This document shows, in pieces, positions 1-49,300 of a stretch of 64,000 nucleotides of DNA; position 1 is the stretch's first letter; each line of letters starts with the position of its first letter. This stretch comes from an uncultured Pirellulaceae bacterium (GTDB lineage Bacteria; Planctomycetota; Planctomycetia; Pirellulales; Pirellulaceae), in NCBI GenBank assembly GCA_964478065.1, contig CAYZGP010000003.1, forward strand, positions 1,684-65,683, in the 5' to 3' direction. The notes beneath the pieces are model-generated. The model worked only from the letters and a program-made list of their open reading frames with translations, was not told where the DNA came from and did no database searches. The translations under genes and the position numbers were made by a program.

Positions 1-1845
1 AATGCCAACGCTGTTGTCGGTGCGGCCATCGCGATTAGTATCGTTGTTTGCAAGACCGCTTTCGACGATGTCAAATACGCCGTCGTTGTCGCTGTCCAGA
101 TCAAGCCGATCAACATATTCGTCTCCGTCGGTGTTGACTTGGCCGAATCCGTCAATGTTTACGTAAGCACTGTTGACTCCATCGTTTTCTGCATAGGTCG
201 CTGCGTCATCATCGTTGGGCGCGATGTAGTCTGCGGTTGTTTGAGCTTCGATGTTGTCAGTGATGCCGTCATTGTCACTATCGAGATCCAGATGATCGGC
301 GATGCCATCGTTGTCACTGTCGGTTCCATTCTCGGCAGTCGTGATCGCATTAGTGAAGTTACTTTGGCGGAAACCAAATCCGAATCCAGCCGTGCTGGCC
401 GCATCGTTCAGTAGCTCGACCTGGAAACGGCTGGTATTCAGGAAGTTCAACTGGATGTCGTCATCAGGATTGTTGACGGTACCACGGAAGCGAACAAAGT
501 CGTCTTCGATCTCGGGAGTGAAACTGCCGCCATCTTCCAACGTATAAGAGTGCAGCGTGGAAAGGTTCGCACCAATTCCTTCGATGCGTTTGACGCTATC
601 GCCGCTTAGCAACGTGTCATCGACATCCCCGAGTCGGATGCTTGTCGTGTTTTCAACAGCCGTTCCATTGCCCGCTCGAATCAACTCAGCAATATCGCCC
701 AGATTGTTTGCTGCTGCAAAATCGGGATCGTCAGGGCTGAAGAATGCGAATTCGAGGCGCACACGTTCTTCGTCACCCAGACGCTCTCCAACACCGCGGA
801 ATTCGATCTTGGGCGATTCGCCCGGACGGGTTGTTTCGGCATTAATCTGAGCGCCGTCGGCAATATCGACGACCGTCACGGCAATCAGATCTTCCCCATC
901 GTTCATGCTGTAAACGACCACATCGCCGACTTCGAGATCGACTTCCCGGTCGTTGTCCGGGTCATCCCCATCCTCGACAACGATTTCACCATTGAAGGCG
1001 TTGGTTGTCGCAAATCCAAAGATCGCATCGGCTCTGAATTCTTTAAAATTCTGGTGGCTAAACTGGCCCGCACTGGCACCCAACCCTTCATCGGCATCCA
1101 GGATTCCATCGTTGTCATCGTCGAGATCGTCCTCGTCGTCCACGCCGTCACCGTCGGTGTCGGCCAAGGTTCCAAGATAAGACTCCGCGGCCAGTGATTG
1201 CGTCTCCACGACACCAACATTCAATTCCAAGTCCCAGTCACCCCCCAGCTCCGCCGCACCAGTCAAATCATCAGACGCCGCGACATCTGCACCGGTAATC
1301 GCGCTGATCGATTCGACAAACTGCTCGCCTTCTGCGTTACCCGCTAGGTCGCAACCGTAGAACAAGAGGTCGGCGTCTTCGGTAAGTGCGTCTGACCAAC
1401 TTGCCAACTGATCAACGTACTTGTTTAGGTTTTCGCTGTTCAGATTTGTGTTACCGAGAAAAACTTCTCCCTCATCACCATGCGAAATGATGTGAATCGA
1501 ATCGTACTTGACCGTTGATTCAGAGAGCAACTGTGTTATCTGTTCGACACCATCGGTGTTCCCATCAAGGATACGAACTTCAAAGTTCCCTTCTGGTTTT
1601 GCCTCAAGAATTTCGGCAAGTAATTGCTCGCTATTCTCAACACCAGCGTCAACGAAAATGAGCTCGCGTGGCCCACGCAATTCGGCTTGTTGCATGGGTT
1701 GAACATGCGCTGGAATTGGATCCGTTGCGTCGTTCTGAGGCAATATAAAGGTTGCATCCGGAACACCGTCGAAGAGAACTCGATCTTCAAGCGATTCAAA
1801 AAGCGAACGGAAAACGAAACCACTATCTTGATTTGGTAAGTGCAT
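1..1845 (-). CDS. Giant secreted/surface protein, 3'-partial: LEPRxLL-like N-terminal motif, DUF4347 domain, TSP3-like acidic Ca-binding repeats
   Basis: Not in the ORF track because it runs off the left edge. Manual translation from ATG 1845 gives [27 protein letters not shown]...[17 protein letters not shown]...[15 protein letters not shown] (DUF4347 hallmark IFVD...HIISHG). Later come [44 protein letters not shown] and [16 protein letters not shown]. The frame is open to position 1. Confidence 0.88.
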
Positions 1846-2392
1846 GCATCTGAGCCTGAAAAGAGATTTGAAAAGCGCAATGGTTGCGGGTGCGCATGTG
1901 TCGCTGGAGCGATAACGACTGAGATATCGAGATTCGTAGAGTGGTAGCTAGAGAGTGTTATCCCTACTGGCGAGACGTTGGTTGCCCATGCTGGAGTCAC
2001 AAAAAACCATGATCAACGACTGACCATTTTCAAACGTTCAATTGCTCCAAGCTTTTAGTTGACGAGAACAATGTTGGTTTACCGCAATCTGGCCTCAATG
2101 TGTCGGGCGAACCTTTTTCAAAATGAATAGATGTTGCTTGTTAGAAGAGCGCGAATCATCTGCCAAAACAAGCGAGTTCCGTTTTCCCCTTTTCCTAAAA
2201 GTTGTGGCGACACGACTTCTAAAGTGTGCTTGCCTTCGTCGCTTCGGTTGGCTGCTTATCGTCTGCCGTTGGATCGGTTTACCCTATTCCTGATGTTTTT
2301 TGGCTACGACTTGTTCGGATTGTGCCGAATACGACTGTGACTCATGTCGTCAAGCTGCCCAACCCGCAATTCATTCTTGTCCAAGAAAAGTA

Positions 2393-4234
2393 ATGTATTC
2401 ACAAATTTCCTCGAGTCGCTGTCGATCTCCGTTTGGATATCTGCTGCTATCCATGCTGACGCTATTGGTTTCAATGCAGACTTGTCTAGCACAACAAGCC
2501 GAATTTAAAAGCTTCGATGCAAACGCTATTTATAGGCAACTTGACGCAAATTCTTTTGCTTCACAACAAACCACGTTAATGCCGTCTTGGTGGGACAGCC
2601 ACGTCGCACGATCACTTCGTGATCAGCAACCAATTCCGACGGACGTTCACACGCTGCTGTTTTTGGCAGTACACAATTCCAATCAAATCAAGATTGCAAA
2701 ACGCGACCCTTTGATTCGTGAGACTGCCGTTCAGGAAGCCGATTCAAATTTTGATTGGGTGAGATATCTCAATACGGCTTGGAATGATACTAGCGAACCG
2801 ATTAGTAGTACGTTGACCGCTGGCGGCACAGCAACTCGGTTCAACGACAATATCTTTCAAGCCACAGGCGGTTTGCGGCGACTGACTCGCTATGGCGGCC
2901 AACTAGACATCAGCCAGCGATTCGGGTGGCAAGATAACAACTCAACATTCTTTGTTCCCGACAATCAAGCAACGGGACAGTTCACTGTTTCTTATACGCA
3001 TCCCTTGTTGCGGGGCAACGGATTTGCGTACAACAACAGCATCGTTTTCTTGGCCAAAATCGACACTGAAGTCGCGGAGCAGGAGTTCATGGCCGCTCTG
3101 CAAGACGAATTGCTCGAAGTGACACGCGGCTATTGGGCACTTTATCTGGAGCGAGCGGTACTGGCTCACCAGATGCGACTTTTTTTAAAAACGCAGCAGA
3201 TCTTTCAAACGCTTGAAGCCCGGCAAGCCGTCGATACTCAACGGACACAATTGATAACTGCTTCAAGTGCTCTGGAAAGCCGTCGAGCAGATCTGATTCG
3301 GGCACGTACTGCTGTGACCAACGCAGAAACGAGATTGCGAGGTATGATCAATGCTCCAGAACTGCAAAACTCGGATCAAGCCGAATTAATCCCATTCGAA
3401 ACTCCTTCTATAAGCCTCTACGAAACTGACTTGAATACAGAAATTCAGGCAGCGCTACAGAATCGCCCAGAAGCCAAAGCAGCAATCAAACAAGTAAAAG
3501 CTGGATCGACTCGGTTAGGAATTGCCCGACACGAATTGTTGCCAGCGCTAAACCTTGTTACGCAGGGATTCGCCAATGGACTTCGAGGGGATAGCGATTT
3601 TGGACAAGCCTTCACAGATCAGTTCTCCGTGGGCCGGCCAAGCTACTCCGTCGGATTGCAATATGAGTTTCCGGTTGGAAACCGACTCGCCAAAGCCCGC
3701 TTATGCCGGCGGCAACATGAACTTGCACAGTTGCAGGATGAATACGCTCGAGCATTACAAATCATAACAACTGAAGTAGATATCGCAGTTCGCGAGCTTC
3801 GCACTTCCTATCTGGAAATCAATGCCAAAAGCAGAGCTCTCGCGGCCGCAGAAGCCGAAGCCAACACGATTGAACAACGTTGGTTAAGAATGATAGACGG
3901 TAACGGAACGGGCGGGCTCAATCTCGAATCGTTGCTGCGATCGCAAGAACGAGTCACCGAAGCCGAACGCGAGTTTGTGACTTCGATTCTGACTTACAAC
4001 TTGGCAATGATCAATCTGAAACGGAGTAACGGCACGCTGCTCCAAACAGAAAACGTGCAGGTGTCTTCCAGTTGTGAAAACGGATGTAAGTCAATCGAAC
4101 TTGATAAAGCCGAACCAGCTGCCGAGCAACCAATCTATCAAGAGGTTGTCCCAAATAGTGCAAGCGGTGTGATTGTAGATGAAACCGTGATTCAAAGTGC
4201 ACCTCAAGGAGCGATTCCTTATTTTCGCCAATAA
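2393..4234 (+). CDS. TolC-family outer membrane channel, paralogue 1
   Basis: OEP-type helical repeats with a signal peptide (MYSQ...LLLSMLTLLVSMQTCLA/QQ). ATG 2393 is preferred over TTG 2300. Adjacent to MFP genes. Confidence 0.85.
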   Translation: MYSQISSSRCRSPFGYLLLSMLTLLVSMQTCLAQQAEFKSFDANAIYRQLDANSFASQQTTLMPSWWDSHVARSLRDQQPIPTDVHTLLFLAVHNSNQIKIAKRDPLIRETAVQEADSNFDWVRYLNTAWNDTSEPISSTLTAGGTATRFNDNIFQATGGLRRLTRYGGQLDISQRFGWQDNNSTFFVPDNQATGQFTVSYTHPLLRGNGFAYNNSIVFLAKIDTEVAEQEFMAALQDELLEVTRGYWALYLERAVLAHQMRLFLKTQQIFQTLEARQAVDTQRTQLITASSALESRRADLIRARTAVTNAETRLRGMINAPELQNSDQAELIPFETPSISLYETDLNTEIQAALQNRPEAKAAIKQVKAGSTRLGIARHELLPALNLVTQGFANGLRGDSDFGQAFTDQFSVGRPSYSVGLQYEFPVGNRLAKARLCRRQHELAQLQDEYARALQIITTEVDIAVRELRTSYLEINAKSRALAAAEAEANTIEQRWLRMIDGNGTGGLNLESLLRSQERVTEAEREFVTSILTYNLAMINLKRSNGTLLQTENVQVSSSCENGCKSIELDKAEPAAEQPIYQEVVPNSASGVIVDETVIQSAPQGAIPYFRQ

Positions 4235-4671: not shown

Positions 4672-6600
4672 ATGTCTAATGCTGTTGCTGCCAACAGGAA
4701 TGCTGGGCCACAAAAGCGCGCCGCAACAACGCGCCGAAATAGCCGTTTAAAGCGTTCGTCTTTGAACGCTTGGCAACATCAAATTCGGAACTTCGAGAGC
4801 CTCGCGTCCAGGTTAACTGAGCAACAGATACGCGATCGAGCCCAGGAGATCCGAGAATCTTATGGCGAACACCAACGGGAGAAACATCTCTTTGAATTTG
4901 GTGGATTAATTGCGGAATCAGTTTTCCGAGCCAACGGTTTCCGCCTCTATGATGTTCAAATAAAAGCGATGGCCGCAGCGACGACCGGGGCCATTGTGGA
5001 AATGCAAACCGGTGAAGGCAAAACCATTGTCACCGGCGCAATCGCCGCAATTCAATCGCTGACCGCACCGTCGGTTCATGTTAGTACGACCAACACCTAT
5101 TTAGCGGGTCGAGATCTTGAAAGCCTGACCGGAACATTTGACCTGCTTGGCATCAGTTATGGTTTGCTTCCAGAGGAAAACGACGAAGCTGAATCGCGTC
5201 GTGTCTACACCAAGCAAATCGTTTATGGCCCAGGTTATCAATACGGGTTTGATTATCTTCGCGATCAAATGTATCTCCGCGACAATCGTCAGTCGAAGCT
5301 TGGTGTGGCGACCATCAACCGGATTCGAGGGCTTGATCCTTACAAGAAACTTATCCAACCACGAGATCATCATGTAGCGCTGATTGACGAAGCCGATAGT
5401 GTGATGATTGACGAAGCGATGACTCCGTTGGTCATCAGTTTGCCCACCAAGGAAACGGAAGATCCGACCCCTTATTTGATCGCCAAGAAAATCGCATCGA
5501 ACTTTACTGAAGGAATCGAATACACGATCACGTTTCCTTCAAAGAAAATTGATGTTACCGACAAAGCCAACCAGCTTGCTCATGATGAGATTGCCAACAA
5601 GCACGATTTGCATCTCGCCCGGCCATGGCGAGTTTACATCGTCAATGCTTTGCGAGCCGAAAAAGCGTTTTTACGGGATGTCGACTATGTTGTCGTAGGC
5701 GGCGAAGTCCAGATCGTTGACCAGTACACTGGCCGCATTCTTCCAGATCGAAGTTGGCAGGATGGACTTCACCAAGCCGTTGAAGCCAAAGAAAACGTTC
5801 CCATCCAACCCGGTCGTGAGTCGACCACTCAGGTTACGCGCCAACGTTACTTGCAAATGTACGATCAGCTTGCTGGTTTGACCGGAACAGCGGCTTCGGT
5901 GAGCAAGGAATTTCAATCGATTTATAATTGCGGCGTTGTCGAAATCCCGACCAATAAAAAGTGTCTTCGAAAGATTTTAAAAACACGATTTTTTGCAAGC
6001 CTTGAAGCCAAATTGGCTGCCATCACCGAGGACGTTTTAAAGCGGCATGCAACTGGCCAACCGATTCTGGTCGGTACAAAAACGATTCGCGAAAGCATCG
6101 AAGCCTACGATTGCCTGGTCGCAAAAGGACTGAGTCCAACGTTGCTTAACGGCGTACAGGATCAAGAAGAAGCCGATATCGTTGCTCAAGCCGGTGCCGC
6201 CGGTTCCATTACCATCGCGACCAACATGGCAGGACGAGGAACGGATATCAAAATCAGCCCTGCGTCGCTTGATGCAGGTGGTCTGCATGTCATTGGAATT
6301 AGCCCCAACAGTTCCAAACGAATCGATCGTCAGTTGGTTGGAAGAGCAGCACGACAAGGCCAACCTGGATCAGCACAGTTTTTTGCTGCCGCAATGGACC
6401 CAATTTTTGTTGATAACGAATCACCGCTTTGCAAACAACTTCGTCGGCGAGCCAACTCAAAAGGTGAAACGGGTGACTTTTCACGAGACCTTAGTGCACT
6501 CCAATCTCTAATTGAAGCTCGTAATTTCAAACAAAGACAAGACATGATCCTTCGCGATATTTGGATGGACTCAGTTCGCGAATCAATTGAAAAAGACTAA
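4672..6600 (+). CDS. secA: Secondary, C-terminally truncated SecA-family ATPase (SecA_DEAD + preprotein-binding + helicase C); not the housekeeping copy
   Basis: Motifs MQTGEGKT, IDEADSVMIDEA, VQIVDQYTGR...WQDGLHQAVEAKE, GLTGTA, GQPILVGT, IATNMAGRGTDI, GGLHVIG, RIDRQLVGRAARQGQPGSAQFF. Only 642 aa, ending just after IEARNFKQRQDM. Confidence 0.92.
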   Translation: MSNAVAANRNAGPQKRAATTRRNSRLKRSSLNAWQHQIRNFESLASRLTEQQIRDRAQEIRESYGEHQREKHLFEFGGLIAESVFRANGFRLYDVQIKAMAAATTGAIVEMQTGEGKTIVTGAIAAIQSLTAPSVHVSTTNTYLAGRDLESLTGTFDLLGISYGLLPEENDEAESRRVYTKQIVYGPGYQYGFDYLRDQMYLRDNRQSKLGVATINRIRGLDPYKKLIQPRDHHVALIDEADSVMIDEAMTPLVISLPTKETEDPTPYLIAKKIASNFTEGIEYTITFPSKKIDVTDKANQLAHDEIANKHDLHLARPWRVYIVNALRAEKAFLRDVDYVVVGGEVQIVDQYTGRILPDRSWQDGLHQAVEAKENVPIQPGRESTTQVTRQRYLQMYDQLAGLTGTAASVSKEFQSIYNCGVVEIPTNKKCLRKILKTRFFASLEAKLAAITEDVLKRHATGQPILVGTKTIRESIEAYDCLVAKGLSPTLLNGVQDQEEADIVAQAGAAGSITIATNMAGRGTDIKISPASLDAGGLHVIGISPNSSKRIDRQLVGRAARQGQPGSAQFFAAAMDPIFVDNESPLCKQLRRRANSKGETGDFSRDLSALQSLIEARNFKQRQDMILRDIWMDSVRESIEKD

Positions 6601-6701
6601 CAAGCTTTCAGGTGTAGTTGCAAAAACGAAATCCGATACGAACCCATTCCTCATTTCAACGTTGCACTTTTTATCCCCCAACCCAGAAACGGAAATTGAC
6701 A

Positions 6702-7610
6702 ATGAACCCCACTCAACCGCGAAATGTTTCGTTCGCCGTTCTGATGGTCATGACTTTTTTAAGTGCGACCGTTGTCAGTGCCACAAACTCTTTTGCACAG
6801 AATCTTCACAATGGTCGGATCACGAAGAGTTTTACCGAGCCGATAGAGAAAAGCATCGCCGCCAGTCCCGAAGTCGGCATCATCGCCGAGTCGTTTGTCA
6901 AAGAAGGCGATCGAGTTCGCGTGGGAGACCGATTGTGTGCAATCAACCACAACGTCCTCGCCGAGTCGTTGGTGATCGCGGTGGCTCGATCTGAGTCAAC
7001 GTCACGACTTGATGCCGCTACTTCCCAAATGGAGCTGGCTAAATCTCAACTTGATGCCATCGAGTCTCTGATCAAAGGCGGACATACGAACAAGTTCGAG
7101 GTCGAGCAAGCAGGTGCCGAGTATCAGAGAGCGTTTGCTGAATTCAGAGCTGCCCAAGACGAGTTGAAACTTGCGAAACTCGAAGTCAAACGAATTCAAG
7201 CTCAAATTAACGATCGCATCATCACCAGCCCAATCAACGGCTTTGTCACCGAGATCCACAAACAGCTTGGCGAAAACATCTCCAATAACGAACCGCAGTA
7301 CGCAACGGTTGTCCGGGTGGATGAATTGAAAGTTCGTTTCTATCTGGATTCAGCGACCTTGCGCTCGTCGAAAGTCGGTGACACAGTATTGGTAAAGGTT
7401 GGAAATTCAAAATTGCGAAAGCCAGCCGTTGTGACTTACGTTTCTCCAGTTATTGACCCAGACAGTGGACTCGGGGCACTGCACTGCAAAATTGATAATC
7501 GGGATTTGCAGATTCAAAGCGGAATTATTTGTTTTTGGAACGAAGACTCAAATTCCGAACCGACTTCTGCCGTCCAGGCATCACGAAAATCTCTACAGCT
7601 TAATCGTTGA
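6702..7610 (+). CDS. Efflux RND/HlyD periplasmic adaptor (MFP) with Sec signal peptide
   Basis: Lipoyl halves (AASPEVGIIAESFVKEGDRVRVGDRL; ITSPINGFVTEIHKQLGE), coiled-coil hairpin and beta-barrel VTYVSPVIDPDSG. ATG 6702 gives signal MNPTQPRNVSFAVLMVMTFLSATVVSA. Confidence 0.85.
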   Translation: MNPTQPRNVSFAVLMVMTFLSATVVSATNSFAQNLHNGRITKSFTEPIEKSIAASPEVGIIAESFVKEGDRVRVGDRLCAINHNVLAESLVIAVARSESTSRLDAATSQMELAKSQLDAIESLIKGGHTNKFEVEQAGAEYQRAFAEFRAAQDELKLAKLEVKRIQAQINDRIITSPINGFVTEIHKQLGENISNNEPQYATVVRVDELKVRFYLDSATLRSSKVGDTVLVKVGNSKLRKPAVVTYVSPVIDPDSGLGALHCKIDNRDLQIQSGIICFWNEDSNSEPTSAVQASRKSLQLNR

Positions 7611-7670: not shown

Positions 7671-9578
7671 ATGACTACTAGTGACAGCCAATCCCATCAG
7701 ACTACCAGTGTACCGGGCAAAGTCCCGTTGCATCGCAAGTATCGTCCGGCCGCTAAGCCTAAAGAAAAACCACAGAAGCTGGGACAAACCGTTGACCAGC
7801 AAGTCTTACAGGTCGTTTCTGGCAACTTCAGTGAAAACGTCGTCCGGACAAAATTTATTCAAATGGCGTTGGCATCGGCTTCTGCGATCGGAGCCTGTTA
7901 TGTTTGCAAAGACCAGCAGGATTTGTGGACTCCATCGGTTGCTGTACCAACCGCCGGCCGCGTTCCCGAGCGGCGCAGCTTTGCAGAAGAGTTTTCAGAA
8001 AAATGTGAACAGTTCACCAAGTCAACCAATGTTCAAACTGCAGTTCTGAATTCGCTGGGCGGGCTATATGGTTTGTTTGCGCCGATCCGGCCAAGGAATT
8101 CCGAACCAGAACTCTTGTTGATCGTCGTTAAGAATCAAAAAAATGCATTGTTGGCAGTTCAGGTCGTTCAAAAAATTGCTGCAGGCTTGCAGATTTGGCT
8201 CAATGGCCGTGATTCAGCCGACGCCGATTGGCAAGTCCAAGCCTTGGCGTCCATCGTCGAGATCGTTGCCAAAGTTGAAAACCAGGAAACGAACAAAGCC
8301 GCTGCAGAAGAGATTGCCAATGCGTTGGCCAATCGACTTGGGTGCAATAGCGCCGCCGTTGGCTTAAACGTCAAAGGGCGAATGAAATTGCAGGCGATTT
8401 CGGGCGTTGGCAAAATCGACCATGGCTCTGCCTCAAGCCGTGACTACCTTCAGACACTCGTCGAAAGTGTGACACGCAAGCAGCCCGGTGTCTTTCCAGC
8501 AACGAGCGAACATAACAATTTCCTGCTCCAAGCCCACAAGCAGCTTGGCTCAACCGTCCAGACCGAAGCCGTTTTCACTCAACCCCTGGTCACCGAAGAC
8601 GACGAAGTTCTGGGCTCGATTGTGCTGACCGGCCAACGTGGTTTGCTTTATTCAAGTCAATTCAAACGATTCAATGCCACCGCTGGACCGGCTTTGGCCA
8701 ATTCATTACGCGTCGTTAACAAGGTTAAGCAAACAACGCTGACCAAAACCAAATCGTATTTAAAACGAAAACTTTCACTGGCGAAACAACTGTTTATTCT
8801 CAGTGCGTTGATCGGATTTGCATTCTTGATGTGTCTTCCAATCACGTACCGAGTTCGTTGCAATTGTGTAACCGAGCCCGTGTCACGCCGTTTTGCGGTC
8901 GCTCCTTTCGATGGACAAATCACAGCAGGACACGTGGAATCTGGTGACTTGGTTACTGCCGGTCAGGTATTGGCTGAAATGGACGACCGGACGATTAACT
9001 GGGAGTTGTATGGGATCACGGCTGAGCGTCGGCAGTCTTTGATTACGCGCGACGTAGAACTTTATGATCGCAATGTGCCAAAGACGATGCTTGCTGAGCT
9101 CGAATACGATCGGTTGATTTCCGAGGAAGCGATTCTCGAATATCGACGAGACAACTTGAGTATCAAAAGCAAGATCGATGGAGTTGTGTTGAGCGGCTCA
9201 CTTGAACGTGCCGAAGCTGCTTCCGTCGAAACCGGCCAAGTCCTTTTCGAAATCGGCCCATTGAAACCAATGCGGGTAGAAGTTGCGATTCCAAGCACCG
9301 AAATTGCCCAGATCAAAGTCGGATTCGACGCGAAAATCTGGATCGATGGTCAAGAAGACGAACCGCTTGTCGGCAGCATCAAGCGAATTCATCCACGCAG
9401 TGAAACACGAGATGCCAAAAACGTTTTCATTGCGGAACTCGAATTCGACAACGAAGACGAACGGCTTCGTCCTGGCATGAAAGGCAGCGTGCGAATCGAT
9501 GGCGAAAAACGATCGCTTGGCTGGAGTATGTTTCACAAACCAATGAACTACGTTCGCTCGCGTTTGACGTGGTGGTAG
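7671..9578 (+). CDS. GAF-like domain(s) fused to HlyD-family MFP
   Basis: About 370-aa N-terminal region with GAF-like segments (ANALANRLGCNSAAVGL...; FTQPLVTEDDEVLGSIVL), one TM helix, then VAPFDGQI...VESGDLVTAGQVLAEMD, IKSKIDGVV and RLRPGMKGSVRI. Confidence 0.8.
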   Translation: MTTSDSQSHQTTSVPGKVPLHRKYRPAAKPKEKPQKLGQTVDQQVLQVVSGNFSENVVRTKFIQMALASASAIGACYVCKDQQDLWTPSVAVPTAGRVPERRSFAEEFSEKCEQFTKSTNVQTAVLNSLGGLYGLFAPIRPRNSEPELLLIVVKNQKNALLAVQVVQKIAAGLQIWLNGRDSADADWQVQALASIVEIVAKVENQETNKAAAEEIANALANRLGCNSAAVGLNVKGRMKLQAISGVGKIDHGSASSRDYLQTLVESVTRKQPGVFPATSEHNNFLLQAHKQLGSTVQTEAVFTQPLVTEDDEVLGSIVLTGQRGLLYSSQFKRFNATAGPALANSLRVVNKVKQTTLTKTKSYLKRKLSLAKQLFILSALIGFAFLMCLPITYRVRCNCVTEPVSRRFAVAPFDGQITAGHVESGDLVTAGQVLAEMDDRTINWELYGITAERRQSLITRDVELYDRNVPKTMLAELEYDRLISEEAILEYRRDNLSIKSKIDGVVLSGSLERAEAASVETGQVLFEIGPLKPMRVEVAIPSTEIAQIKVGFDAKIWIDGQEDEPLVGSIKRIHPRSETRDAKNVFIAELEFDNEDERLRPGMKGSVRIDGEKRSLGWSMFHKPMNYVRSRLTWW

Positions 9579-9764: not shown

Positions 9765-11948
9765 ATGCTAAACGAAAAAACATTTGAATTCAGCCAGGCT
9801 CGCCTTCGGCTCAAAGACAGTCTTCGGTTCACGATGCGTCAAAGTGGCGATGCGGTTGAATATTTGGTCGAAGACGAAGTCACGGGGCGATTCTTTCGTG
9901 TTGGGTTACCTCAGTATACGTTTCTGACGATGTTGGACGGTCGACGAACGGTAAGTACCGGACTGATGAAGACCGCGACGCTGTTGCGCGAACATGCCAT
10001 CGATGAAACCGAAGCTGCCAATCTTTGTAAATGGGCAATCGAATCGGGACTTGTCGAATCGGAAACTGGTAACTCAACGGCTCGGCGAATTGAGCAACAT
10101 GAGTTGCAGCAAAAACAAAAGATGATGTCGTATCTCAATCCTATGATGATGCGAATTCCGCTTTTCAATCCCGATCCAATCGTCACCACTCTCTCGCGAT
10201 TCATTGGTTTCGTCGTCAGCCCGATCGGCGCTGTTATCTGGTTGACGGTTTGCCTCTATGGATTTTTTCAGCTGGCAAACAACTGGGACGCGTTTTACAC
10301 GAACCGCGTCAACTCGTTCGGTGCGGCTGATTTCGCTTGGATCGCATTGACATGGATCGTGCTGAAATTGATTCACGAAATTGCCCACTCATTAGTTTGT
10401 AAACAGTTCGGCGGGCGCGTTCAGTCGTGCGGGATGTTATTCCTGTTGATGATTCCAATGCCCTATGTCGATGTGACCAGTTCATGGCGATTCGACAATA
10501 AATGGAAACGGATTTTGACGTCCGCTGCCGGAATGATGAGCGAAGTTTTTCTCGCAGCGATCGCGTGTTGGGTGTGGGCAACCAGCTCTCCGGGGCCACT
10601 TCAGTATCACGCCGGCAACGTCATCATCTCCGCGACGTTGCATACTTTGTTGTTCAATATCAACCCGTTGATGCGGTTCGATGGTTATTACATGTTGGCC
10701 GACTGGTTGGAGATTCCCAACCTCTCGACGCACGGAAGAAGCTGGCTCAAAGGCGTTTTCAAACGAGCTTATTTTGGCAACAAAGCCCAACCGCTTAAGG
10801 AAACAGGATTTCGCGGACTGGCCGTGAGAGCTTACGGTATCATGGCGATGATGTGGTTTTTTACCATCGCTATCGGCCTGTCGCTTGCCGCATCGAGTTT
10901 CATGGAGGGCTTTGGGTTGTTGGTCGCCGCGATCGGATTGGTACTGTGGGTCGGGGTTCCGTTATATAGTCTTTGCAAGTACACCGCCGTTGGCACCAAA
11001 ACAGAAAAACCCAATCGGCCATGGTTTGCTGGGGCAATGACACTCACGCTGCTGCTGGTAGCGGGATTTCTTTATTGTTGTCCGAGTCCTTCGGTCGTTT
11101 CCGCACCGGTTGTGATTGACTACGAACCGCTTTCGGTTGTCCGCGCCAATTCAACCGGATTTGCGAAGTCGATTCATGTGGTCGATGGACAAAGCGTCAA
11201 CCAAGGCGACCTGTTGGTTACTTTGGAAAATCCTGATATCGAACACGAGCTAAAATCTTTGATGATCGACATCAAGATCTCACAACTACGCTCCAATACT
11301 CTGTTTAGTCAGGGCGAAATTAGCCAAGTTCAATTGGAGCAAAAATCGCTTGATTCGATGTTGAAGCGAAAGTCCGAACTGGAAACGCGAATCGCAGAGC
11401 TTAAAATTTACGCTCCACAATCGGGTAACGTTTTGGCGCGTGATCTTGAATCGCTAACTGGAAGGCACTTTACTCCTGGTACTGAAATTCTCTCCATTGC
11501 AGAACCGGGTGCACTTCACGCGATTGCATTGACTCGCCAAACAGATATCGAGTGGGTGGCCGAAAACCCGGAAGCCGATATTGAGCTAGTGGTTTGGGGG
11601 CGGCACGAAAACGATTTGCTTGTCGGCAAGATCAAGCATATTAATCCTCGTGCCCGAGACGATTTACCTCACGAGGCATTCGCGGCTTCAGTTGGTGGCC
11701 CATTGGCTGTCGTAAGTCGGGGGCAAGTTGAAGAGCTAGAGGACCAAAAAGATGAAGGCGAGATGATGCTAACCCACCCCCGTGTTCCAGTCGAAATCGA
11801 ACTCAAAAAAGAAGATCGAGTGAGCTTGGTCGCAGGACAAACAGGGCAACTGATTGTCCGCTCGCGGAACCAAAACATGGGCAGCTACCTGGCTAATAAC
11901 CTGGTCCGGTTCGTTCGCGAAAACAATTTCCGAACGCACGGGCTATAA
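9765..11948 (+). CDS. PqqD/RRE-like domain + M50 (site-2) metalloprotease-like membrane domain + HlyD/lipoyl adaptor fusion
   Basis: HEIAH (HExxH) inside a TM segment and NINPLMRFDGYY (NPDG-like), several TM helices. C-terminal VRANSTGF...VVDGQSVNQGDLLVTLEN and IYAPQSGNV. N-terminal YLVEDEVTGRFFRVGLPQYTFLTMLDG wHTH-like segment. Confidence 0.85.
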   Translation: MLNEKTFEFSQARLRLKDSLRFTMRQSGDAVEYLVEDEVTGRFFRVGLPQYTFLTMLDGRRTVSTGLMKTATLLREHAIDETEAANLCKWAIESGLVESETGNSTARRIEQHELQQKQKMMSYLNPMMMRIPLFNPDPIVTTLSRFIGFVVSPIGAVIWLTVCLYGFFQLANNWDAFYTNRVNSFGAADFAWIALTWIVLKLIHEIAHSLVCKQFGGRVQSCGMLFLLMIPMPYVDVTSSWRFDNKWKRILTSAAGMMSEVFLAAIACWVWATSSPGPLQYHAGNVIISATLHTLLFNINPLMRFDGYYMLADWLEIPNLSTHGRSWLKGVFKRAYFGNKAQPLKETGFRGLAVRAYGIMAMMWFFTIAIGLSLAASSFMEGFGLLVAAIGLVLWVGVPLYSLCKYTAVGTKTEKPNRPWFAGAMTLTLLLVAGFLYCCPSPSVVSAPVVIDYEPLSVVRANSTGFAKSIHVVDGQSVNQGDLLVTLENPDIEHELKSLMIDIKISQLRSNTLFSQGEISQVQLEQKSLDSMLKRKSELETRIAELKIYAPQSGNVLARDLESLTGRHFTPGTEILSIAEPGALHAIALTRQTDIEWVAENPEADIELVVWGRHENDLLVGKIKHINPRARDDLPHEAFAASVGGPLAVVSRGQVEELEDQKDEGEMMLTHPRVPVEIELKKEDRVSLVAGQTGQLIVRSRNQNMGSYLANNLVRFVRENNFRTHGL

Positions 11949-12407: not shown

Positions 12408-12697
12408 TTTTCGTACATGCTAACGCAGATGCAATTGTTCAGAGGGTGCGGGTATTGAGGGTCAAAGAGGAGATTACTCCTAATCGAAAATGATAGGTGG
12501 TTGAGTTTTTCGAATGTAGCGCTGATGTTGAATGCAGCTGTTCGAATGCCGTGATACATAGAGGAATTGGCAAATCTATCACAAGCAAATTGACGATTAG
12601 AATCCTACCTCAAAAGCTCCGGGGTTTAGCACTCGTCAAATTCAGATGCTTACTCTTCTCACCGAACTCAACAAACTTTTTCCCACCTTGGAATTTT

Positions 12698-14500
12698 ATG
12701 AAAATGCGAATTCTAATTGCCGCCATAGCAGCGCTCGGTTGTGTTTCCGCTTCTGTGGTCGCTCAGCAACCACAGTTCAAGCAATTTGATGCAGTTGATG
12801 TGTTTCGTCAGATGGATAGTAGTGTCCAGGAGCAACCTTTGGTCCCGTCTTGGTGGGACACCAACGTTGCTCAGTCGTTAAGAGATCAACCGCCAATTCA
12901 AGCAGACGTTCATACACTGCTTTATTTGGCGGTTCATCACTCCAATCAAATCAAGATTGCCAAACGCGATCCGCTGATTCGTGAAACGGCGATTCAGGAA
13001 GCTGACTCAAATTTCGATTGGGTTCGCTATCTCAATACAGCCTGGAACGATACGAGTGAACCGATCAGCAACACGTTGACAGCGGGCGGAACGGCGACTC
13101 GATTTGTTGATAACGTCTTTCAGGGTACTGGTGGAATTCGCCGGAACACTCGTAGTGGTGGTCAGCTTGATATTAGTCAGCGATTCGGCTGGCAGGACAA
13201 CAACTCAACGTTCTTCGTTCCAGACAATCAAGCGACCGGCCAATTCACTGTTTCTTATTCTCATCCTTTGCTTCGTGGCAACGGCGTGGCGTACAACACG
13301 AGTATCGTTTTTCTCGCACAAGTTGATTCCGAGGTTGCCCAACAGGAATTTCTGGCGACGTTGCAAGACGAGCTGTTGGAAGTCACTCGCAGCTACTGGA
13401 CTCTATACCTTGAGCGTGCTGTGTTGGCTCACAGAATGCGGTTGTTCTTGAAGACTCAGGAAATTTACGGCACGCTTAAGGCACGCCAAACGGTTGATAC
13501 CCAGGGGACGCAAGTGATCACGGCAGCAAGTGCCTTGGAAGGCCGTCGAGCTGACTTGATTCGTGCTAGAACGGCTGTGACCAATGCCGAAACTCGACTG
13601 CGTGGTATGATCAATGCCCCGGAACTACAAAATTCAGATCAGGCAGAGTTGATCCCGGTTGAAATGCCTTCAACGCAATTTTTTCGACCTGATTTACAAG
13701 CTGAAATTCAAACGGCGCTTCAAAATCGCCCGGAAGTCATGGCCGCGATCCGTCAAGTCAAAGCTGGATCGGTACGGTTGGGAGTCGCTCGACATGAATT
13801 GCTTCCTGCACTTAACCTCGTCACACAGCTTTATAGTAGTGGCCTGCGAGGTAACAGCAATTTTGGTGGTGCGTTTACTGATCAATTTTCTGTTGGAAGG
13901 CCAAGCTATTCTGTTGGGCTTCAGTACGAGATGCCAGTAGGAAATCGCCTTGCCAAAGCTCGACTTTGCCGCCGGCAACATGAACTTGCCCAGTTGCAAG
14001 ACGAGTACGCCCGTGCGTTGCAGATCGTTCAAACCGAAGTTGACATTGCAGTTCGAGAACTCAATACGGCGTATTTGGAAATTGGTGCTAAAAGCCGAGC
14101 TTTGGCAGCAGCCGAAGCAGAAGCTAACACAATCGAACAGCGCTGGTTGCGAATGGTTGATGGAAGCGGTACAAGCGGACTCAACCTCGAGTCGCTATTG
14201 CGTTCGCAAGAGCGAGTCACTGAAGCCGAACGTGAATACGTAACATCGCTTCTGACTTATAATCTTGCTATGATCAATCTCAAGCGAAGCAATGGAACTT
14301 TGCTTCAGACAGAAAACATTTCGGTATCCAATGATTGCGAGAATGGTTGCAACGGTATCCAGGTTGACAAACTTGGCCCGGCTGCGACAAACCAACCGGC
14401 CATGATCGGTCAGGATCAGTTGCCGGCCGAAGAAAGCATCATGGAAGTCAGTTCTCTTCCGCAAAATGATGAACTTGAAGCAAGCTACTTTCGCAGATAA
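12698..14500 (+). CDS. TolC-family outer membrane channel, paralogue 2
   Basis: Long stretches identical to paralogue 1. Signal peptide MKMRILIAAIAALGCVSASVVA/QQ from ATG 12698, preferred over GTG 12497. Confidence 0.87.
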   Translation: MKMRILIAAIAALGCVSASVVAQQPQFKQFDAVDVFRQMDSSVQEQPLVPSWWDTNVAQSLRDQPPIQADVHTLLYLAVHHSNQIKIAKRDPLIRETAIQEADSNFDWVRYLNTAWNDTSEPISNTLTAGGTATRFVDNVFQGTGGIRRNTRSGGQLDISQRFGWQDNNSTFFVPDNQATGQFTVSYSHPLLRGNGVAYNTSIVFLAQVDSEVAQQEFLATLQDELLEVTRSYWTLYLERAVLAHRMRLFLKTQEIYGTLKARQTVDTQGTQVITAASALEGRRADLIRARTAVTNAETRLRGMINAPELQNSDQAELIPVEMPSTQFFRPDLQAEIQTALQNRPEVMAAIRQVKAGSVRLGVARHELLPALNLVTQLYSSGLRGNSNFGGAFTDQFSVGRPSYSVGLQYEMPVGNRLAKARLCRRQHELAQLQDEYARALQIVQTEVDIAVRELNTAYLEIGAKSRALAAAEAEANTIEQRWLRMVDGSGTSGLNLESLLRSQERVTEAEREYVTSLLTYNLAMINLKRSNGTLLQTENISVSNDCENGCNGIQVDKLGPAATNQPAMIGQDQLPAEESIMEVSSLPQNDELEASYFRR

Positions 14501-28822: not shown

Positions 28823-28841
28823 TTGGATTTAGTAAAAACAG

Positions 28842-43364: not shown

Positions 43365-46300
43365 ATGCCCCGATCAAAAAATTCACCATCTAAACGACTA
43401 CGGAACAATTTAAAAAGCAACAATCGTCCTGGTTTCTCGCGCAAAGACGCGCACTCGCAAAGCCTACGATTTGAACGACTTGAACCAAGGCATTTTTTAA
43501 CAGGCGTCGGCAATCCTGTTTTTCACCTAGAAGTCGACTTCGGGATCCACCTTGAAGATGGCGTGGTCGCCGAGTGGCATGACAGTCAATCGGGAAATGA
43601 TCATGAATTGGTAGCCAACGGAACACGGCGTCCTGCCTTTGGTACGGTACAAACGCCATCGGGACTTGATGCGATCCGATTTGATGGCGTTAACGACCGT
43701 TTGATTCAAACGATCGATAGTGGATTTATTGATCTGCCAGACGGGAACAGTGATCGGACAATTTTTGTTGTAGCTCAATTTCACGGAGCCAGTTGGGACG
43801 CCGGTATTGGTTTCGGCGCCGGAGCGCCCAACGAAACGTTTGGAGTTGCAGTTGAGCGCGAGGGGAGTGCAACCGAAGGGCAGTTTTTGGTGCAAGGATG
43901 GGGAGGTGGAAATGATTTTATCTCTGACGAGTCGGGATTTACCGATGCAGGTGGTGGGCAATCAACGGGCTGGGTGATTTTGGCAGTCACGCACGACGCC
44001 GATAACGCAGGTGATTCGACTCAATTTTACAGGACTACCTCAATCGATGCGGGACAAGAGATTTTGTCTTTCGACCATGACTACAACACCAACCTTTCTA
44101 ACGGTGGATTGTTGAATGGCAATTCGGCTTCCAGGTTTGTCATCGGCGAGGAGATCAGTGAACTCGGTTTTACGGAAATAGATGTTGCCGCGATTTTGGT
44201 TTATGACGAAGCGCTTGACGCTGTAGATCGCGGCGGCGTCGAAGAATATTTGCAACAAAAATATCTTGTTGGTGACATCCAAAATCAATTGGTCGCCGGT
44301 GGTTTAGATCAACCGACGAGTCTGGAAGTTCTTCCTGATGGCCGTATTTTGGTGTTGGAAAAAGAAGGCGATATTAGGATTGTTGATCCAACTCAGGATG
44401 TTCCAACGGCCGAACCCTATCTGTCCATCACCAATGTTAATTCCGAAAGGGAACGCGGGCTGACGGATATTGCCTTGGATCCTGATTTCGAAAACAACAA
44501 CTATTTTTACGTTTACTATCACACCGACGGTGCCGACGGTGATATACCACGCGCTCGGTTGTCTCGATTTACGAACTTGGGAGACAATGCAACGCTGGCG
44601 AGTGAAGTCGTTCTTTGGCAAGACCTTGACAATTCAAATCTCAGTCCCAATCACTGGGGTGGTGGATTGGATTTTGGGCCAGATGGGAAACTTTACTTGA
44701 CGATCGGCGACAAGTTTTTAGATCCTACGGACGCACAAGATCCACAAAGCTATGGTGGCAAAATTCTTCGTCTCAATACTGATGGAAGTGTTCCGGCGGA
44801 CAATCCGTTTGTTGGGGACGACCCTGATGGTTTTCTTGATGAGATTTGGGCGTATGGTTTGCGGAATCCATTCCGTGCCAATTGGGATATTCCAACAGGC
44901 CGATTTTTTATCGGTGATGTCGGCGGCAATGTTCAGGAAACCGCTTTCGAGGAAATCAATCTCGGAGTCGCTGGAGCGAATTATGGTTGGCCAGGTGAAG
45001 AAGGCTTCAATACCAACGCAGAGTTTACCGATCCAATTTTTGCATATGACCATTCTGAGCCTACTCCCAATGGCGGTGCGGTCGCTGGCGGTATCGTTTA
45101 TCGAGGTGAATTGTTCTCTGAGCAATTTGAAGGAGCGTATTTCTTTGGCGATTTTGTACAGGGGTGGATTCGCTATTTGAGGTTTGACGAAAACGGCGGC
45201 GTAATTGACGCGGATCCTTCGACGCCGCAGTTGGACGCATTTGAACTTAGCGACGAGCCGATTGCTCCCGTGGCGATTGAAGTTGGCTCGAGCGGCGAGT
45301 TATTGTACCTCGACTTTTTTACCGGCGAATTGCGCCAATTTGTTTCTGGAAATTTGGCTCCAGAAATCGTTGAAGCTTCTTCTGATATCGACCAGGGGTT
45401 GGCGCCGTTGGTTGTCAATTTTACAGGGCTGGCCGAGGATCCTGAGGGAGACGATATCCAATATGTTTGGGATTTTGGTGATGGGAATCAAGCATTTGGA
45501 GCGAACGTTTCGCACACCTACGCAGCCAATGGATTTTACGAAGCGACACTTCGCGCCTCCGACGGATTTCAAACAACCGTCTCCGAGCCTGTAGCAATCA
45601 CCGTTGGCGAAGCACCAGCAGTGACGATTGTGACTCCATACGAAGGGCAGTTTTTTATCGCTGGCGAAACAATTTCGCTGTCTGGTTTGGCAACGGATGA
45701 TGGGGAGTTAACCGAAGAAAGCTACAGTTGGACGATTCGGTTCCTTCATAACGATCACACTCATCCGGTGCTTGATGGCGCTACAGGTTCAAATATCACT
45801 TTCGAGATTGATAGGAGGGGACATGATTTCTCTGACGAAACTGGATTCGAAATTGAATTAGTCGTTACCGATTCAGATGGCATCTCAACGACAGAAACCG
45901 TCGCCATATTCCCAGACAAAGTCGACGTGACATTCGACACAACCTTCCCCGGAGATTTGACTTTTACGTTGGATGGTGTCCCGCGTGAAGGTTCGTTCAT
46001 CCACGACACTTTGATCAATTTCGAACACACGATCAGTGTTCCTGTATTTGCCAATTACAACGGCGACGAGTATGAGTTTGTCGCATGGTCCGATGGATCA
46101 ACGGATTCAAGTTATGTATTCGACGTGCCTGACAGCGATATAACCCTAACAGCGATCTATCAAAACAACGGGAGTTCCACATCTCTGCCGACTGACGACC
46201 TTGTTTTACGTTTGGATGCACAGAACGGCGTGACGGTTGATGGCACCGGAACGGTGACTGCCTGGACAGATCAATCGGGGTTTGCGAATTCATTGGCTGC

Positions 46301-49300
46301 GACGGGTGATCCCACGTTGATTGAAAACGAACTCAATGGCCATGACGTGATCCGTTTCGATGGTACAGGTGATTCACTCCGAGCATTGACACTGAATTCA
46401 TTCCCTGAAGGCAACGAGAATCGCAGCCTGTTTGTGGTGGCTCGTTATGACGGTGTCGGATATGGCGGCGTGTCATATGGCGATAACAGCCTGAATGAAA
46501 CGTTCGGTGCGATCGTTGACCCCAGTGGAAACTTGACGGCTCAAGGTTGGGGAAGTTCAAACGATTTCAGAACAGATGTAGCAGCCACAGGAGAGGGATG
46601 GCTGATTCAAGAATTGATTTTGACCAATGGCGTGCTGACTCATTTCAGAGATGCTGTTTTGATTGATACGCAAAACCATGTCTTCTCCACGGACGTGGAC
46701 AACGGAAATGGCTTTATTATTGGAGCCGAGATTGATAGCAATCCGTTTATCGATATGGACGTTGCGGAAGTTTTGGTTTACGACCGTGCCCTTTCTCCGA
46801 CTGATCGACAGCAGGTAGAAAACTATTTGTTGGAAAAGTATTTCAGCAACAGTAATTCGGCTCCGACAGCCAACGACGATGCTTTTACGGTCGATGAAAG
46901 CTCTGTCAATAATGTAATTGACGTCAAAGCCGATAATGGCAATGGTGCCGATGTAGATCCCGATGGCGATCCGATTTCGATTGTTGCAGTGGGTACTCCG
47001 TCTCTCGGAGGATCGGTGACTATCAACAACAATGGCACTGCGGTCGATACGACGGACGATTTTCTCCAGTACACTCCTTCGCCGGGCGTTGTTGGAACTG
47101 AGACGTTTACTTATACGATCAGTGACGGGGTGTTAACTTCTGAAGCCACGGTGACAGTGACAATCGATGCGGCCGATGCTAATAATTCGGCACCGGTTAA
47201 CACTTTGCCAGGCACGATCGTTGTTGAGGCGCCCAACGCTGTGGTGGTTTCTGGAGTCAGTATCGCTGACTCAGACGCGGGTGGAGAGTCGGTAACAAGT
47301 CAATTGGTGGTTGGAACCGGCACGTTGGAAGTTACGCTTGTCGGTGATGCGACGATTTCTTCTGGATCCAACCTGTCCAATGATTTTACGTTGCTGGGAA
47401 CGGTAGCAGATATCAACGCGACGTTGGCAAGTCTGGAATACACTCCGCAGGTTGGCTTCCTTGGAACGGATCAGTTGACGATTACGACTGACGATTTAGG
47501 AAATACGGGTGAAGGCGGGCCTTTACAAGATACTGACTCTGTTTCAATTCTTGTTGTACCAGGACTGCCGTCTGCAGATTTAGTCGTTCGATTGGATGCC
47601 CAGACCGGTGTTAGCGAAAACGAAAACGGTGTGATTGGTTTGGCTGACCAATCAGGATTTGGAAATGATCTTTCTGGAACAGGTGATCCACAGCGCGTTG
47701 TGGGTGGTCTGAATGGCTTGGACTATATCGAGTTTGATGGATCAGGAGATTCGTTGATTCGAGCGACGGGACTTAACAACTTACCAGAAGGCAATGAAGA
47801 CCGAAGCTTGTTTGTCGTGGTGAGATATGACGGTGTTGGGTTTGGGGGTGTTGCCTATGGTGACAATAGCTTTAATGAAACGTTTGGTGCGATCGTCAAT
47901 CCCAACGGATTTTTGACTGCTCAAGGTTGGGGCACTGCAAATGATTTCCATACAACGACAGCGGGAACGTCTGAGGGTTGGCTGATTCAGGAGATTGTGC
48001 TGACGGCGGGAACGTTGGAACACTTCAGAGATGGCGTGTTGATTGACTCTCAAACACACACATTCAACACCGACGTGGCCAATGGTAATGGCTTTGTGAT
48101 TGGAGCCGAGATCGACAGCAATCCGTTTGTCGATCTGGACGTTGCGGAAGTGTTGCTCTACGACCGAGCGTTAGATAGTACCGATCGCCAAGCCGTTGAG
48201 TCTTATTTGTTGGGCAAGTACTTCGGGGTCTTTAACACCGCGCCGATAGCCAACGACGATGCTTTTACGGTCGATGAAAGCTCTGTCAATAATGTAATTG
48301 ACGTCAAAGCCGATAATGGCAATGGTGCCGATGTAGATCCCGATGGCGATCCGATTTCGATTGTTGCAGTGGGTACTCCGTCTCTCGGAGGATCGGTGAC
48401 TATCAACAACAATGGCACTGCGGTCGATACGACGGACGATTTTCTCCAGTACACTCCTTCGCCGGGCGTTGTTGGAACTGAGACGTTTACTTATACGATC
48501 AGTGACGGGGTGTTAACTTCTGAAGCCACGGTGACAGTGACAATCGATGCGGCCGATGCTAATAATTCGGCACCGGTTAACACTTTGCCAGGCACGATCG
48601 TTGTTGAGGCGCCCAACGCTGTGGTGGTTTCTGGAGTCAGTATCGCTGACTCAGACGCGGGTGGAGAGTCGGTAACAAGTCAATTGGTGGTTGGAACCGG
48701 CACGTTGGAAGTTACGCTTGTCGGTGATGCGACGATTTCTTCTGGATCCAACCTGTCCAATGATTTTACGTTGCTGGGAACGGTAGCAGATATCAACGCG
48801 ACGTTGGCAAGTCTGGAATACACTCCGCAGGTTGGCTTCCTTGGAACGGATCAGTTGACGATTACGACTGACGATTTAGGAAATACGGGTGAAGGCGGGC
48901 CTTTACAAGATACTGACTCTGTTTCAATTCTTGTTGTACCAGGACTGCCGTCTGCAGATTTAGTCGTTCGATTGGATGCCCAGACCGGTGTTAGCGAAAA
49001 CGAAAACGGTGTGATTGGTTTGGCTGACCAATCAGGATTTGGAAATGATCTTTCTGGAACAGGTGATCCACAGCGCGTTGTGGGTGGTCTGAATGGCTTG
49101 GACTATATCGAGTTTGATGGATCAGGAGATTCGTTGATTCGAGCGACGGGACTTAACAACTTACCAGAAGGCAATGAAGACCGAAGCTTGTTTGTCGTGG
49201 TGAGATATGACGGTGTTGGGTTTGGGGGTGTTGCCTATGGTGACAATAGCTTTAATGAAACGTTTGGTGCGATCGTCAATCCCAACGGATTTTTGACTGC

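Follow-up and report, generated by a model that had tools for sequence, protein, structure and literature searches.

The 64,000-nucleotide window analysed here (positions 1684-65683 of contig C3 in the 6.19-Mb draft assembly of an uncultured Pirellulaceae bacterium, G000) encodes two giant proteins, P0001 and P0002, with a short L-E-x-R leader motif near their N-termini and, beside the gene of P0001, a gene cluster containing a secondary SecA_DEAD protein and an M50 protease fused to a periplasmic adaptor. We consider it probable (roughly 0.7) that this leader is what assigns large surface proteins, as cargo, to the envelope-spanning machine encoded by such 'secondary SecA_DEAD' clusters, in which the leader would be read by a domain resembling the recognition element (RRE) of ribosomally synthesised and post-translationally modified peptides (RiPPs), the cargo would be driven by the SecA-like protein, and the leader would be cut off by the M50 protease. 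The evidence consists of a strictly N-terminal protein family, of the linkage in gene neighbourhoods and the co-occurrence across genomes of leader and machine, of the covariation of leader subtype and machine clade, and of an RRE-like fold and intact catalytic motifs in the M50 fusion protein. The two giant proteins and their relevant parts (aa, amino acids) are located in the window as follows.

1..1845, minus strand: P0001, a giant acidic repeat protein of at least 1176 aa, the open frame of which runs to base 1 of contig C3.
1756..1845, minus strand: leader of P0001 (aa 1-30), core motif from L19 to 29, a type A (DUF4347-type) LEPR-XLL-like tag.
1183..1662, minus strand: DUF4347 domain of P0001 (aa 62-221; PF14252, 181.5 bits, E-value 1.3e-53).
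43365..50285, plus strand: P0002, a 2306-aa multidomain extracellular-type protein without a Sec or Tat signal.
43365..43505, plus strand: leader of P0002 (aa 1-47), a basic n-region followed by a motif from F36 to G47, type B, a borderline match.

By translation, the first 30 codons of the minus-strand open reading frame (ORF) 1845..1 correspond exactly to window positions 1756-1845. The translation of ORF 43365-50285 begins with MPRSKNSPSKRLRNNLKSNNRPGFSRKDAHSQSLRFERLEPRHFLTG, in which FERLEPRHFLTG represents aa 36-47 and is preceded by a basic stretch with 11 lysine or arginine residues in 38 aa; further downstream P0002 has GSDH (beta-propeller), PKD, LamG, Big_9 and cadherin-like domains. 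The start of the motif is 18 aa past the initial methionine in P0001 and 38 aa past it in P0002. As criterion for a Sec h-region a 10-residue window with a mean Kyte-Doolittle value of at least 2.2 within the first 70 aa was used. The maxima obtained were 1.06 for P0001 and 1.17 for P0002, which confirmed the observation of the original prediction, made from the DNA of the window alone, that neither giant has a hydrophobic Sec h-region. Inspection of both N-termini also gave no RR-x-F-L motif of a Tat signal, for which the h-region is likewise absent. The label LEPRxLL/Planc_extracel that had been attached to the two proteins did not hold at the level of the curated models, since neither protein reaches the threshold of NF012209 or PF07595: NF012209 matched P0001 at aa 15-27 with 15.3 bits (E-value 0.012), under its curated cut-off of 17, and had zero matches at an E-value of up to 10 to the N-terminus of P0002, and PF07595 (Planc_extracel) matched neither N-terminus at that E-value. 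Formal membership in LEPR-XLL or Planc_extracel can thus not be claimed for P0001 or P0002.

The LE-x-R motif defines a strictly N-terminal family of 28 proteins of the LEPR-XLL kind in G000. A strict regular-expression search of the genome already showed the motif piling up at N-termini. The hidden Markov model (HMM) that was then built from 26 N-termini of the same genome, P0002 among them, recovered 28 ORFs at 10.3-28.7 bits, with 7.0 bits as the best remaining score, and all 28 matches were N-terminal, in the initial ~100 aa of their frames, with no internal match. The leader consensus consists of an often basic n-region followed by (Y/F/L)(E/Q)x-L-E-x-R-x-(L/M/V)-(L/F/Y)-(S/A/D)(A/G), without a hydrophobic core; the distance from methionine to motif is 11-78 aa across the 28 members (median 30), usually with a strongly basic stretch in between. 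An h-region-like window (at least 2.2) was present in one of the 28 tagged proteins and in 43% of all genes. In the whole-genome search with NF012209 only three other ORFs of G000, on contigs C36, C155 and C7, scored above the cut-off. The 22.1 bits obtained for P0002 with the own-genome HMM are circular because P0002 was a seed. With the respective protein and its close paralogue left out, P0001 scored 10.6 bits and P0002 8.9 bits against 7.5 bits for the best non-member, the margin of P0002 being small. HMMs constructed only from machine-adjacent leaders of other genomes recovered P0001 with scores of 26.0 and 16.7 bits, placing it fourth among 6121 ORFs, and orthologues of this DUF4347 protein at four other loci (L002, L003, L004 and L009) keep the methionine 12-17 aa upstream of LEDR. 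Since the leave-one-out margins differ in this way and the HMMs from other genomes recover only P0001, P0001 is a solid member of the leader family and P0002 probably a member, but a borderline one.

The putative reader and protease of the leader are encoded in a cluster of six genes at 2300-14500, which run divergently from P0001.

2300..4234, plus strand: TolC-like outer-membrane factor 1 (PF02321, OEP; weak TIGR01844 match).
4672..6600, plus strand: secondary SecA_DEAD protein of 642 aa (PF07517, PF01043, PF21090), comprising motor and preprotein-binding domains.
6618..7610, plus strand: short periplasmic adaptor (membrane fusion protein, MFP; HlyD_3, HlyD_D23).
7671..9578, plus strand: adaptor with a cytoplasmic N-region of ~370 aa, belonging to the class termed 'GAF/HlyD' by Kamneva 2015 (HlyD_3 and HlyD_D23 matches at aa 411-603).
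9765..11948, plus strand: RRE-like domain, M50 protease and adaptor in a single chain (PF02163, HlyD).
12497..14500, plus strand: TolC-like outer-membrane factor 2 (PF02321), 75-78% identical to factor 1 (tblastn).

The M50 fusion protein comprises the RRE-like domain (aa ~14-99), the motifs HEIAH (aa 204-208) and NPLMRFDG (aa 300-307) and the adaptor part (aa ~450-720). The match to PF02163 reaches 28.7 bits, above the cut-off of 27.2; H204, E205, N298, N300, P301, D306 and G307 are invariant in 36 homologues and H208 is nearly so, and the M50 active site is intact. The daptide M50 leader protease model NF041824 aligned over model positions 17-370 of 379 with 154.4 bits (E-value 4.4e-45), which does not reach its equivalog cut-off of 300 bits, and the protein is by this measure a relative rather than a member of the daptide leader protease family. 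AlphaFold2 models of aa 1-430 (pLDDT 85, pTM 0.81) and of aa 1-110 (pLDDT 88) place strands and then three helices ahead of the membrane domain. A PqqD-like RRE is a leader-binding winged-helix fold of a three-stranded sheet and three helices. When aa 1-110 were compared with the PDB by Foldseek, all of the six best matches were B1 RRE proteins of lasso-peptide systems whose structures include the leader peptide (TbiB1, 5V1V/5V1U, and 6JX3), with a probability of 1.00, TM scores of 0.58-0.64 and modest E-values of 1.7e-3 to 3e-2. The membrane part matched the site-2 protease of M. jannaschii (3B4R). The designation of the M50 N-domain as RRE-like in the original prediction is thereby backed at the level of the fold, and the leader would be bound by this domain.

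The SecA-like protein lacks the C-terminal part of SecA, its match stopping at about model position 612 of 789, and it is under the cut-off of all SecA and SecA2 NCBIfam models. Pfam detected neither an ABC, RND or MFS pump nor a C39 domain in the genes at 2300-14500 and had zero matches at an E-value of up to 10, GAF included, in aa 1-370 of the long adaptor; a double-glycine (GG) motif was not found at the leader ends. Sequence searches of the PDB copy with the M50 fusion and the long adaptor gave only generic adaptor matches, so that a solved relative of the machine is absent from this copy. The cluster corresponds to the 'secondary SecA_DEAD' conserved locus of Kamneva, Poudel and Ward (2015, PLoS One; PMC4452313), for which a wingless and scaffold-less SecA_DEAD protein is combined with Peptidase_M50/HlyD, HlyD, a HlyD protein with a long N-terminal region (GAF/HlyD in the 2015 gene set) and, in some cases, OEP. 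The machine itself was hence already described in 2015; a secretion-related function was proposed at that time, its role was termed 'completely unknown', and the locus was reported also in Methylobacterium extorquens AM1 (META1p2399-2402; PMC4452313). A conserved ORF of ~130 aa (e.g. ...KKITVRPSQKKQTSAPVKLSFESTDVSYCSQFSV...) is situated ahead of the long adaptor gene at four other loci (L082 9119-9508, L083 10604-11011, L086 9771-10157 and L087 11525-11917); in the gap at 4235-4671 of the window neither an equivalent of this ORF nor a small DUF3467-like ORF was found.

Nine M50-adaptor genes and seven SecA_DEAD genes were identified in G000. The canonical SecA is the copy on C122, in a 1258-aa frame, and the other six are secondary; together with the 28 tagged proteins this is an unusually large set of parallel machines in a single genome. 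The M50-adaptor genes are located on C3, C6, C7 (two copies), C15, C33, C54, C83 and C155, and C45 is a further contig with members of these families. The M50-adaptor paralogues in G000 are 24-35% identical to the window copy. The gene content of the assembly is planctomycete-like, and its closest M50-adaptor relatives are Pirellulaceae. For six of the 28 tagged genes an M50-adaptor or SecA-like gene is found at a distance of less than 6 kb, compared to 0.72 expected for random placement (P=5e-5), namely P0001 on C3, two further DUF4347 proteins on C15 and C7, a 788-aa protein directly upstream of a SecA-like gene on C54, a protein of at least 813 aa on C155 and one of 1543 aa on C6. The gene of P0002 is 31.5 kb away from the M50 gene of the window.

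A scan with one genome per species returned at least 588 M50-adaptor loci. Among the best 80, which were inspected, a SecA-like gene was present in 42 and a tagged ORF within 10 kb in about 20, and the rate of the motif at M50-adaptor loci was 0.10 per 1000 residues for N-terminal and 0.007 for internal positions. Ten additional pairs of adjacent tagged gene and machine were retrieved. Tagged giants adjoin the machine in Verrucomicrobiota, Desulfobacterota and Alphaproteobacteria: a Verrucomicrobiales genome (G232) has two such pairs with open frames of 3938 and 9770 aa, a further pair occurs in another member of the Verrucomicrobiota (G233), a tagged frame of 8660 aa adjoins the machine in an Acetobacteraceae genome (G225), and a tagged frame of 8440 aa in a Desulfovibrionales metagenome-assembled genome (G231) is separated from the machine by a SapC-like gene. 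In one further genome (G143) OEP, adaptor, M50 fusion, SecA-like protein and giant are encoded in one same-strand array. SapC-like ORFs of ~260 aa, recognised by eye, were seen in or beside the machine cluster at the Pseudomaricurvus (L050 4681-5448), Methylomonas (L077 9759-10562) and Desulfovibrionales (L090 13514-14293) loci, at L050 and L090 between the giant gene and the machine. This layout resembles the sapC-giant-tolC-giant order reported for the LEPRxLL giants of Chlorobium chlorochromatii, giant symbiosis proteins on which the same tag was reported (bioRxiv 10.64898/2026.03.19.712371).

The phyletic distribution of leader and machine was determined in 200 further genomes from the phylum, all with a completeness of 85% or more, using one-sided Fisher tests, which ignore phylogenetic relatedness. 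An M50-adaptor gene was found in 55 of the 200 genomes, and NF012209 matched above its cut-off in 26. The check that had been fixed beforehand, whether LEPRxLL proteins are common in genomes without the cluster, came out negative, as 24 of these 26 genomes also have an M50-adaptor gene (odds ratio 55, p=8.7e-14). With the matches of NF012209 and of our own leader model united, the gene was present in 29 of 34 positive genomes (p=6e-15). A second SecA_DEAD gene was found in 42 of the 55 M50-positive and in 7 of the 145 M50-negative genomes (p=2e-24), and leaders were detected in 28 of the 42 genomes that have both the M50-adaptor and the second SecA gene compared to 1 of the 13 that have the former only. 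Positive genomes span 18 families, and several families (f13, f31, f55 and f81) hold both states. Beyond this set, 15 cluster-bearing genomes were reached through loci of other classes and phyla; NF012209 matched above its cut-off in 11 of them, whereas none of 14 model organisms used as controls had such a match. The longest open frame with an NF012209 match in the searched genomes has 28,751 aa. The co-occurrence, the association with the second SecA gene and the adjacency in several phyla support the proposition of the original prediction that the motif is a leader tied to the SecA/M50 machine.

Two leader subtypes could be distinguished, type A (LE[DE]RxL[FY][DSN]AxP), mostly on DUF4347 proteins, and type B (basic-LEPRxLL[SAD][AG]), which is without the final proline of type A; the leader of P0001 belongs to type A and that of P0002 to type B. 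In a maximum likelihood tree of 94 M50-adaptor proteins the deepest (root) split (SH-aLRT 99) separates a clade (clade I) containing 24 of the 24 type A neighbours, including the copies of the window, C15 and C7, from a second clade (clade II) containing seven of the eight type B neighbours and the copies of C54 and C6. The subtype label changes twice on this tree compared to 7.3 times in shuffles, and none of 500 shuffles was as low. If the machine recognises the tag, such covariation of subtype and clade is to be expected. Based on its type A leader, its DUF4347 domain and its divergent adjacency to the cluster, we infer that P0001 is the cognate cargo of the adjacent clade I machine. P0002, if genuine, is more probably served by one of the six clade II machines encoded on other contigs of G000 (C54, C155, C6, C33, C83 and the second C7 copy), because its type B leader pairs with the other M50-adaptor clade. 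Of the earlier interpretation, according to which both proteins share one leader and may be substrates of the machine in the window, the common core motif stands, but the subtypes differ and P0002 is likelier to depend on machines of other contigs, so that this interpretation is supported in part only.

Several results weigh against the proposed relation between leader and machine. In G000, the nearest machine gene is over 10.5 kb away, or missing from the contig altogether, for 21 of the 28 tagged genes; contigs that carry no machine gene account for 19 tagged genes, several of them at contig ends. About 60 of the 80 inspected loci have no leader ORF within 10 kb. Of the 55 genomes with an M50-adaptor gene, 26 had no leader match, either because the models miss divergent leaders or because the machine has other cargo, and five of the 34 leader-positive genomes, mostly with weak E-values, had no detected M50-adaptor gene. 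For aa 1-138 of the M50 fusion Pfam returned zero matches at an E-value of up to 10, PqqD included, and the Foldseek E-values for the RRE match are, as stated, modest. Concerning P0002, the HMMs from leaders of other genomes scored it below 1.8 bits and at 5.2 bits, within the noise, and the search with its N-terminus in 20 relatives found no orthologue.

The distance of many tagged genes from any machine would also fit an explanation in which the tag serves maturation, retention or regulation instead of being an export address and the cargo leaves by another route. In a retention variant the part of RRE and M50 would be limited to trimming or anchoring the N-terminus, comparable to LapG and the retention module of LapA, and in a signalling variant the cleavage of the leader would be the signalling event, as for site-2 proteases in regulated intramembrane proteolysis. 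The classical roles of M50 proteases are signalling and processing, the folded DUF4347 domain close behind the type A tag could be a plug or retention module, and the machine is without a recognised inner-membrane pore or ABC transporter (PMC4452313). However, the tagged proteins have no other recognisable export signal despite their extracellular-type domains, the three adaptors and the TolC ducts of the machine point to a conduit and would have no place in a signalling module, and the SecA-like motor retains its preprotein-binding domain, for which reasons we regard a role other than export as unlikely. Subtype tracking the M50-adaptor clade within and across genomes is not what would be predicted if the motif were a general hallmark of giant extracellular proteins on another pathway and its link to the locus were indirect, via lifestyle, mobile islands or large genomes. 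An indirect link would accommodate that the majority of the tagged genes show no linkage to a machine, that the locus was inferred to be horizontally transferred (Kamneva et al., PMC4452313), so that giants could travel along without interacting, and that the statistics do not take phylogeny into account. Yet adjacency recurs in several distant phyla with differing gene orders, presence and absence covary inside single families, and one domain of the machine is folded like the readers of leader peptides, which leaves an indirect link very improbable.

For P0002 alone, FERLEPRHFLTG could be a chance resemblance, which would place this protein outside of the tagged family. About 12 of the 22 strict regular-expression matches are internal and therefore due to chance, which implies approximately one to two chance matches at N-termini genome-wide, and the silence of NF012209 and PF07595, the small leave-one-out margin, the independent HMM score in the noise and the missing orthologues are in line with this. 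The motif, on the other hand, is situated behind a strongly basic stretch 38 aa from the methionine as in most type B members, the protein has extracellular-type domains without another signal, and all 28 above-noise matches are N-terminal; a chance origin of this motif therefore seems fairly unlikely, though less so than the two preceding explanations.

According to the reading preferred here, the RRE-like N-domain of the M50 fusion would bind and thereby recognise the leader in the cytoplasm, the SecA-like motor would thread the unfolded chain outward into a conduit of inner-membrane part, adaptor and TolC-like factor and presumably provide the energy coupling, and the M50 active site would cut the leader off at a presumed site, in the way the C39 domain does in type I secretion systems (T1SS) of the bacteriocin type. 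Most likely the system is a leader-dependent tripartite exporter, a functional analogue of the double-glycine leader/C39-ABC exporters made of unrelated parts. In the bacteriocin T1SS with peptidase-containing ABC transporters (PCAT; e.g. CvaAB-TolC), an N-terminal double-glycine leader is cut by the C39 peptidase domain of the ABC exporter. The machine of the window would share with these the cleavable leader (its cleavage being predicted here), the leader peptidase borne in the inner membrane, the HlyD-type adaptor and the TolC duct. It differs by having no ABC transporter, C39 domain or GG motif, and instead an M50 protease fused to an adaptor, a SecA-like ATPase and cargo of up to thousands of residues.

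Parts of the machine also resemble components of RiPP systems, the M50 N-domain sharing the fold of strands plus three helices with the lasso-peptide B1 RREs (5V1V/5V1U, 6JX3) and the protease part being nearest to the daptide M50 leader protease (NF041824). In contrast to RiPP systems the window cluster contains no RiPP modification enzymes, its putative substrates are giant proteins and not peptides, and fusion to an adaptor is not a RiPP feature. In the accessory Sec system (SecA2/SecY2) a second SecA serves giant serine-rich adhesins with special N-terminal signals. Common to both systems would be a SecA paralogue dedicated to few surface proteins, which are very large and begin with an unusual region; here, however, the SecA2 models are below cut-off, no SecY2 is encoded in the cluster, the tag is without h-region and the partners are adaptors and TolC-type proteins. 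For giant proteins of Omnitrophota and Actinobacteria a wingless and scaffold-less SecA_DEAD with preprotein-binding domains was proposed as an aid to export (West-Roberts et al., 2023, bioRxiv 10.1101/2023.11.21.568195); there the SecA part is inside the giant itself and M50, HlyD and LEPR tag were unreported, whereas here it is a separate 642-aa protein encoded in an operon with TolC and adaptors.

With respect to the known motif, the leaders of P0001 and P0002 are like LEPR-XLL (NF012209, 'LEPR-8K') and PF07595 in representing a short, strictly N-terminal L-E-x-R-x-L-L on very large extracellular-type proteins without a classical signal peptide, and differ in scoring under the thresholds and in forming two subtypes, each tied to a clade of M50-adaptor proteins. 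The 2015 locus has the same gene set as the window cluster; its cargo, its signal and the RRE-like domain were not named in that study, and it is tied here to LEPR-XLL-tagged proteins. In the searchable literature neither a paper linking the LEPR-XLL tag to the machine nor a later paper on the 2015 locus was found, and a polymorphic-toxin paper and a T1SS review do not mention such a system. Motif and locus were thus each known already, and their connection, the two pairings of subtype and clade and the RRE-like reader are absent from the searchable literature.

Two orphans would hereby be joined, the long-catalogued motif of some of the largest bacterial proteins, to which the searchable literature assigns no export route, and the 2015 locus of secondary SecA, M50, HlyD and TolC. 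If true, this would provide an exit route for giant adhesin-like proteins without signal peptide in Planctomycetota and Verrucomicrobiota as well as in several lineages of Proteobacteria and Desulfobacterota, and represent the first RiPP-style leader reader and intramembrane metalloprotease serving protein secretion as well as the first SecA paralogue working with a TolC-type conduit. As the tag is short and the reader domain comprises ~100 aa, the link is directly testable. More speculatively, and with the balance of probability somewhat on the negative side, the LEPR-XLL leaders could constitute an address code in which each clade of RRE-M50-adaptor proteins reads its own subtype; a cell would then possess several orthogonal, ABC-independent and SecA-powered one-step export channels with removal of the leader by intramembrane proteolysis during transport, a distinct pathway across at least five phyla.

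In the DUF4347 domain of P0001, comparison with 15 homologues (16 sequences in total, loci L002-L042) showed H118, H122-G123, D159, Y163-G164-C165, D187 and W204 to be invariant. The H-G and G-C pairs recall the His/Cys dyad of clan CD (caspase-like) peptidases, which hints that self-processing is conceivable. The sole PDB relative of the domain was a 201-aa DUF4347 protein (9QPE chain G, E-value 0.03). A route through type VI secretion (T6SS) and its Hcp rings was considered for P0001 and rejected on two grounds, cargo size and strength of the match: with more than 1176 aa the protein is too large for the Hcp lumen, which cannot take cargo of this size, and the match to 9QPE is weak. The 9QPE entry belongs to a paper about the loading of T6SS effectors into Hcp rings, and PA0256, a DUF4347 protein of P. 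aeruginosa, is named in another paper as a putative Hcp-delivered effector.

Within P0002, three modules of ~460 aa (LamG, Big_9/cadherin and a further segment) follow each other at a spacing of exactly 1380 nucleotides at 46203-49600 of the window, and a stretch of more than 400 aa is present twice, letter for letter, in the translation. These repeats represent either a very recent tandem duplication or a collapse or expansion in the assembly.

Between the two giant genes, a complete aerotolerance-type operon of MoxR, DUF58 and BatA-BatD-like genes is located at 25888-35093 and is unrelated to the leader finding. Downstream of P0002 the stretches 56909-57991 and 58063-63999 encode an exosortase of the EpsH family, an AAA_31 protein resembling tyrosine kinases and a large TPR protein; this exosortase sorting system seems unrelated to P0002 because P0002 has no PEP-CTERM-like C-terminus.

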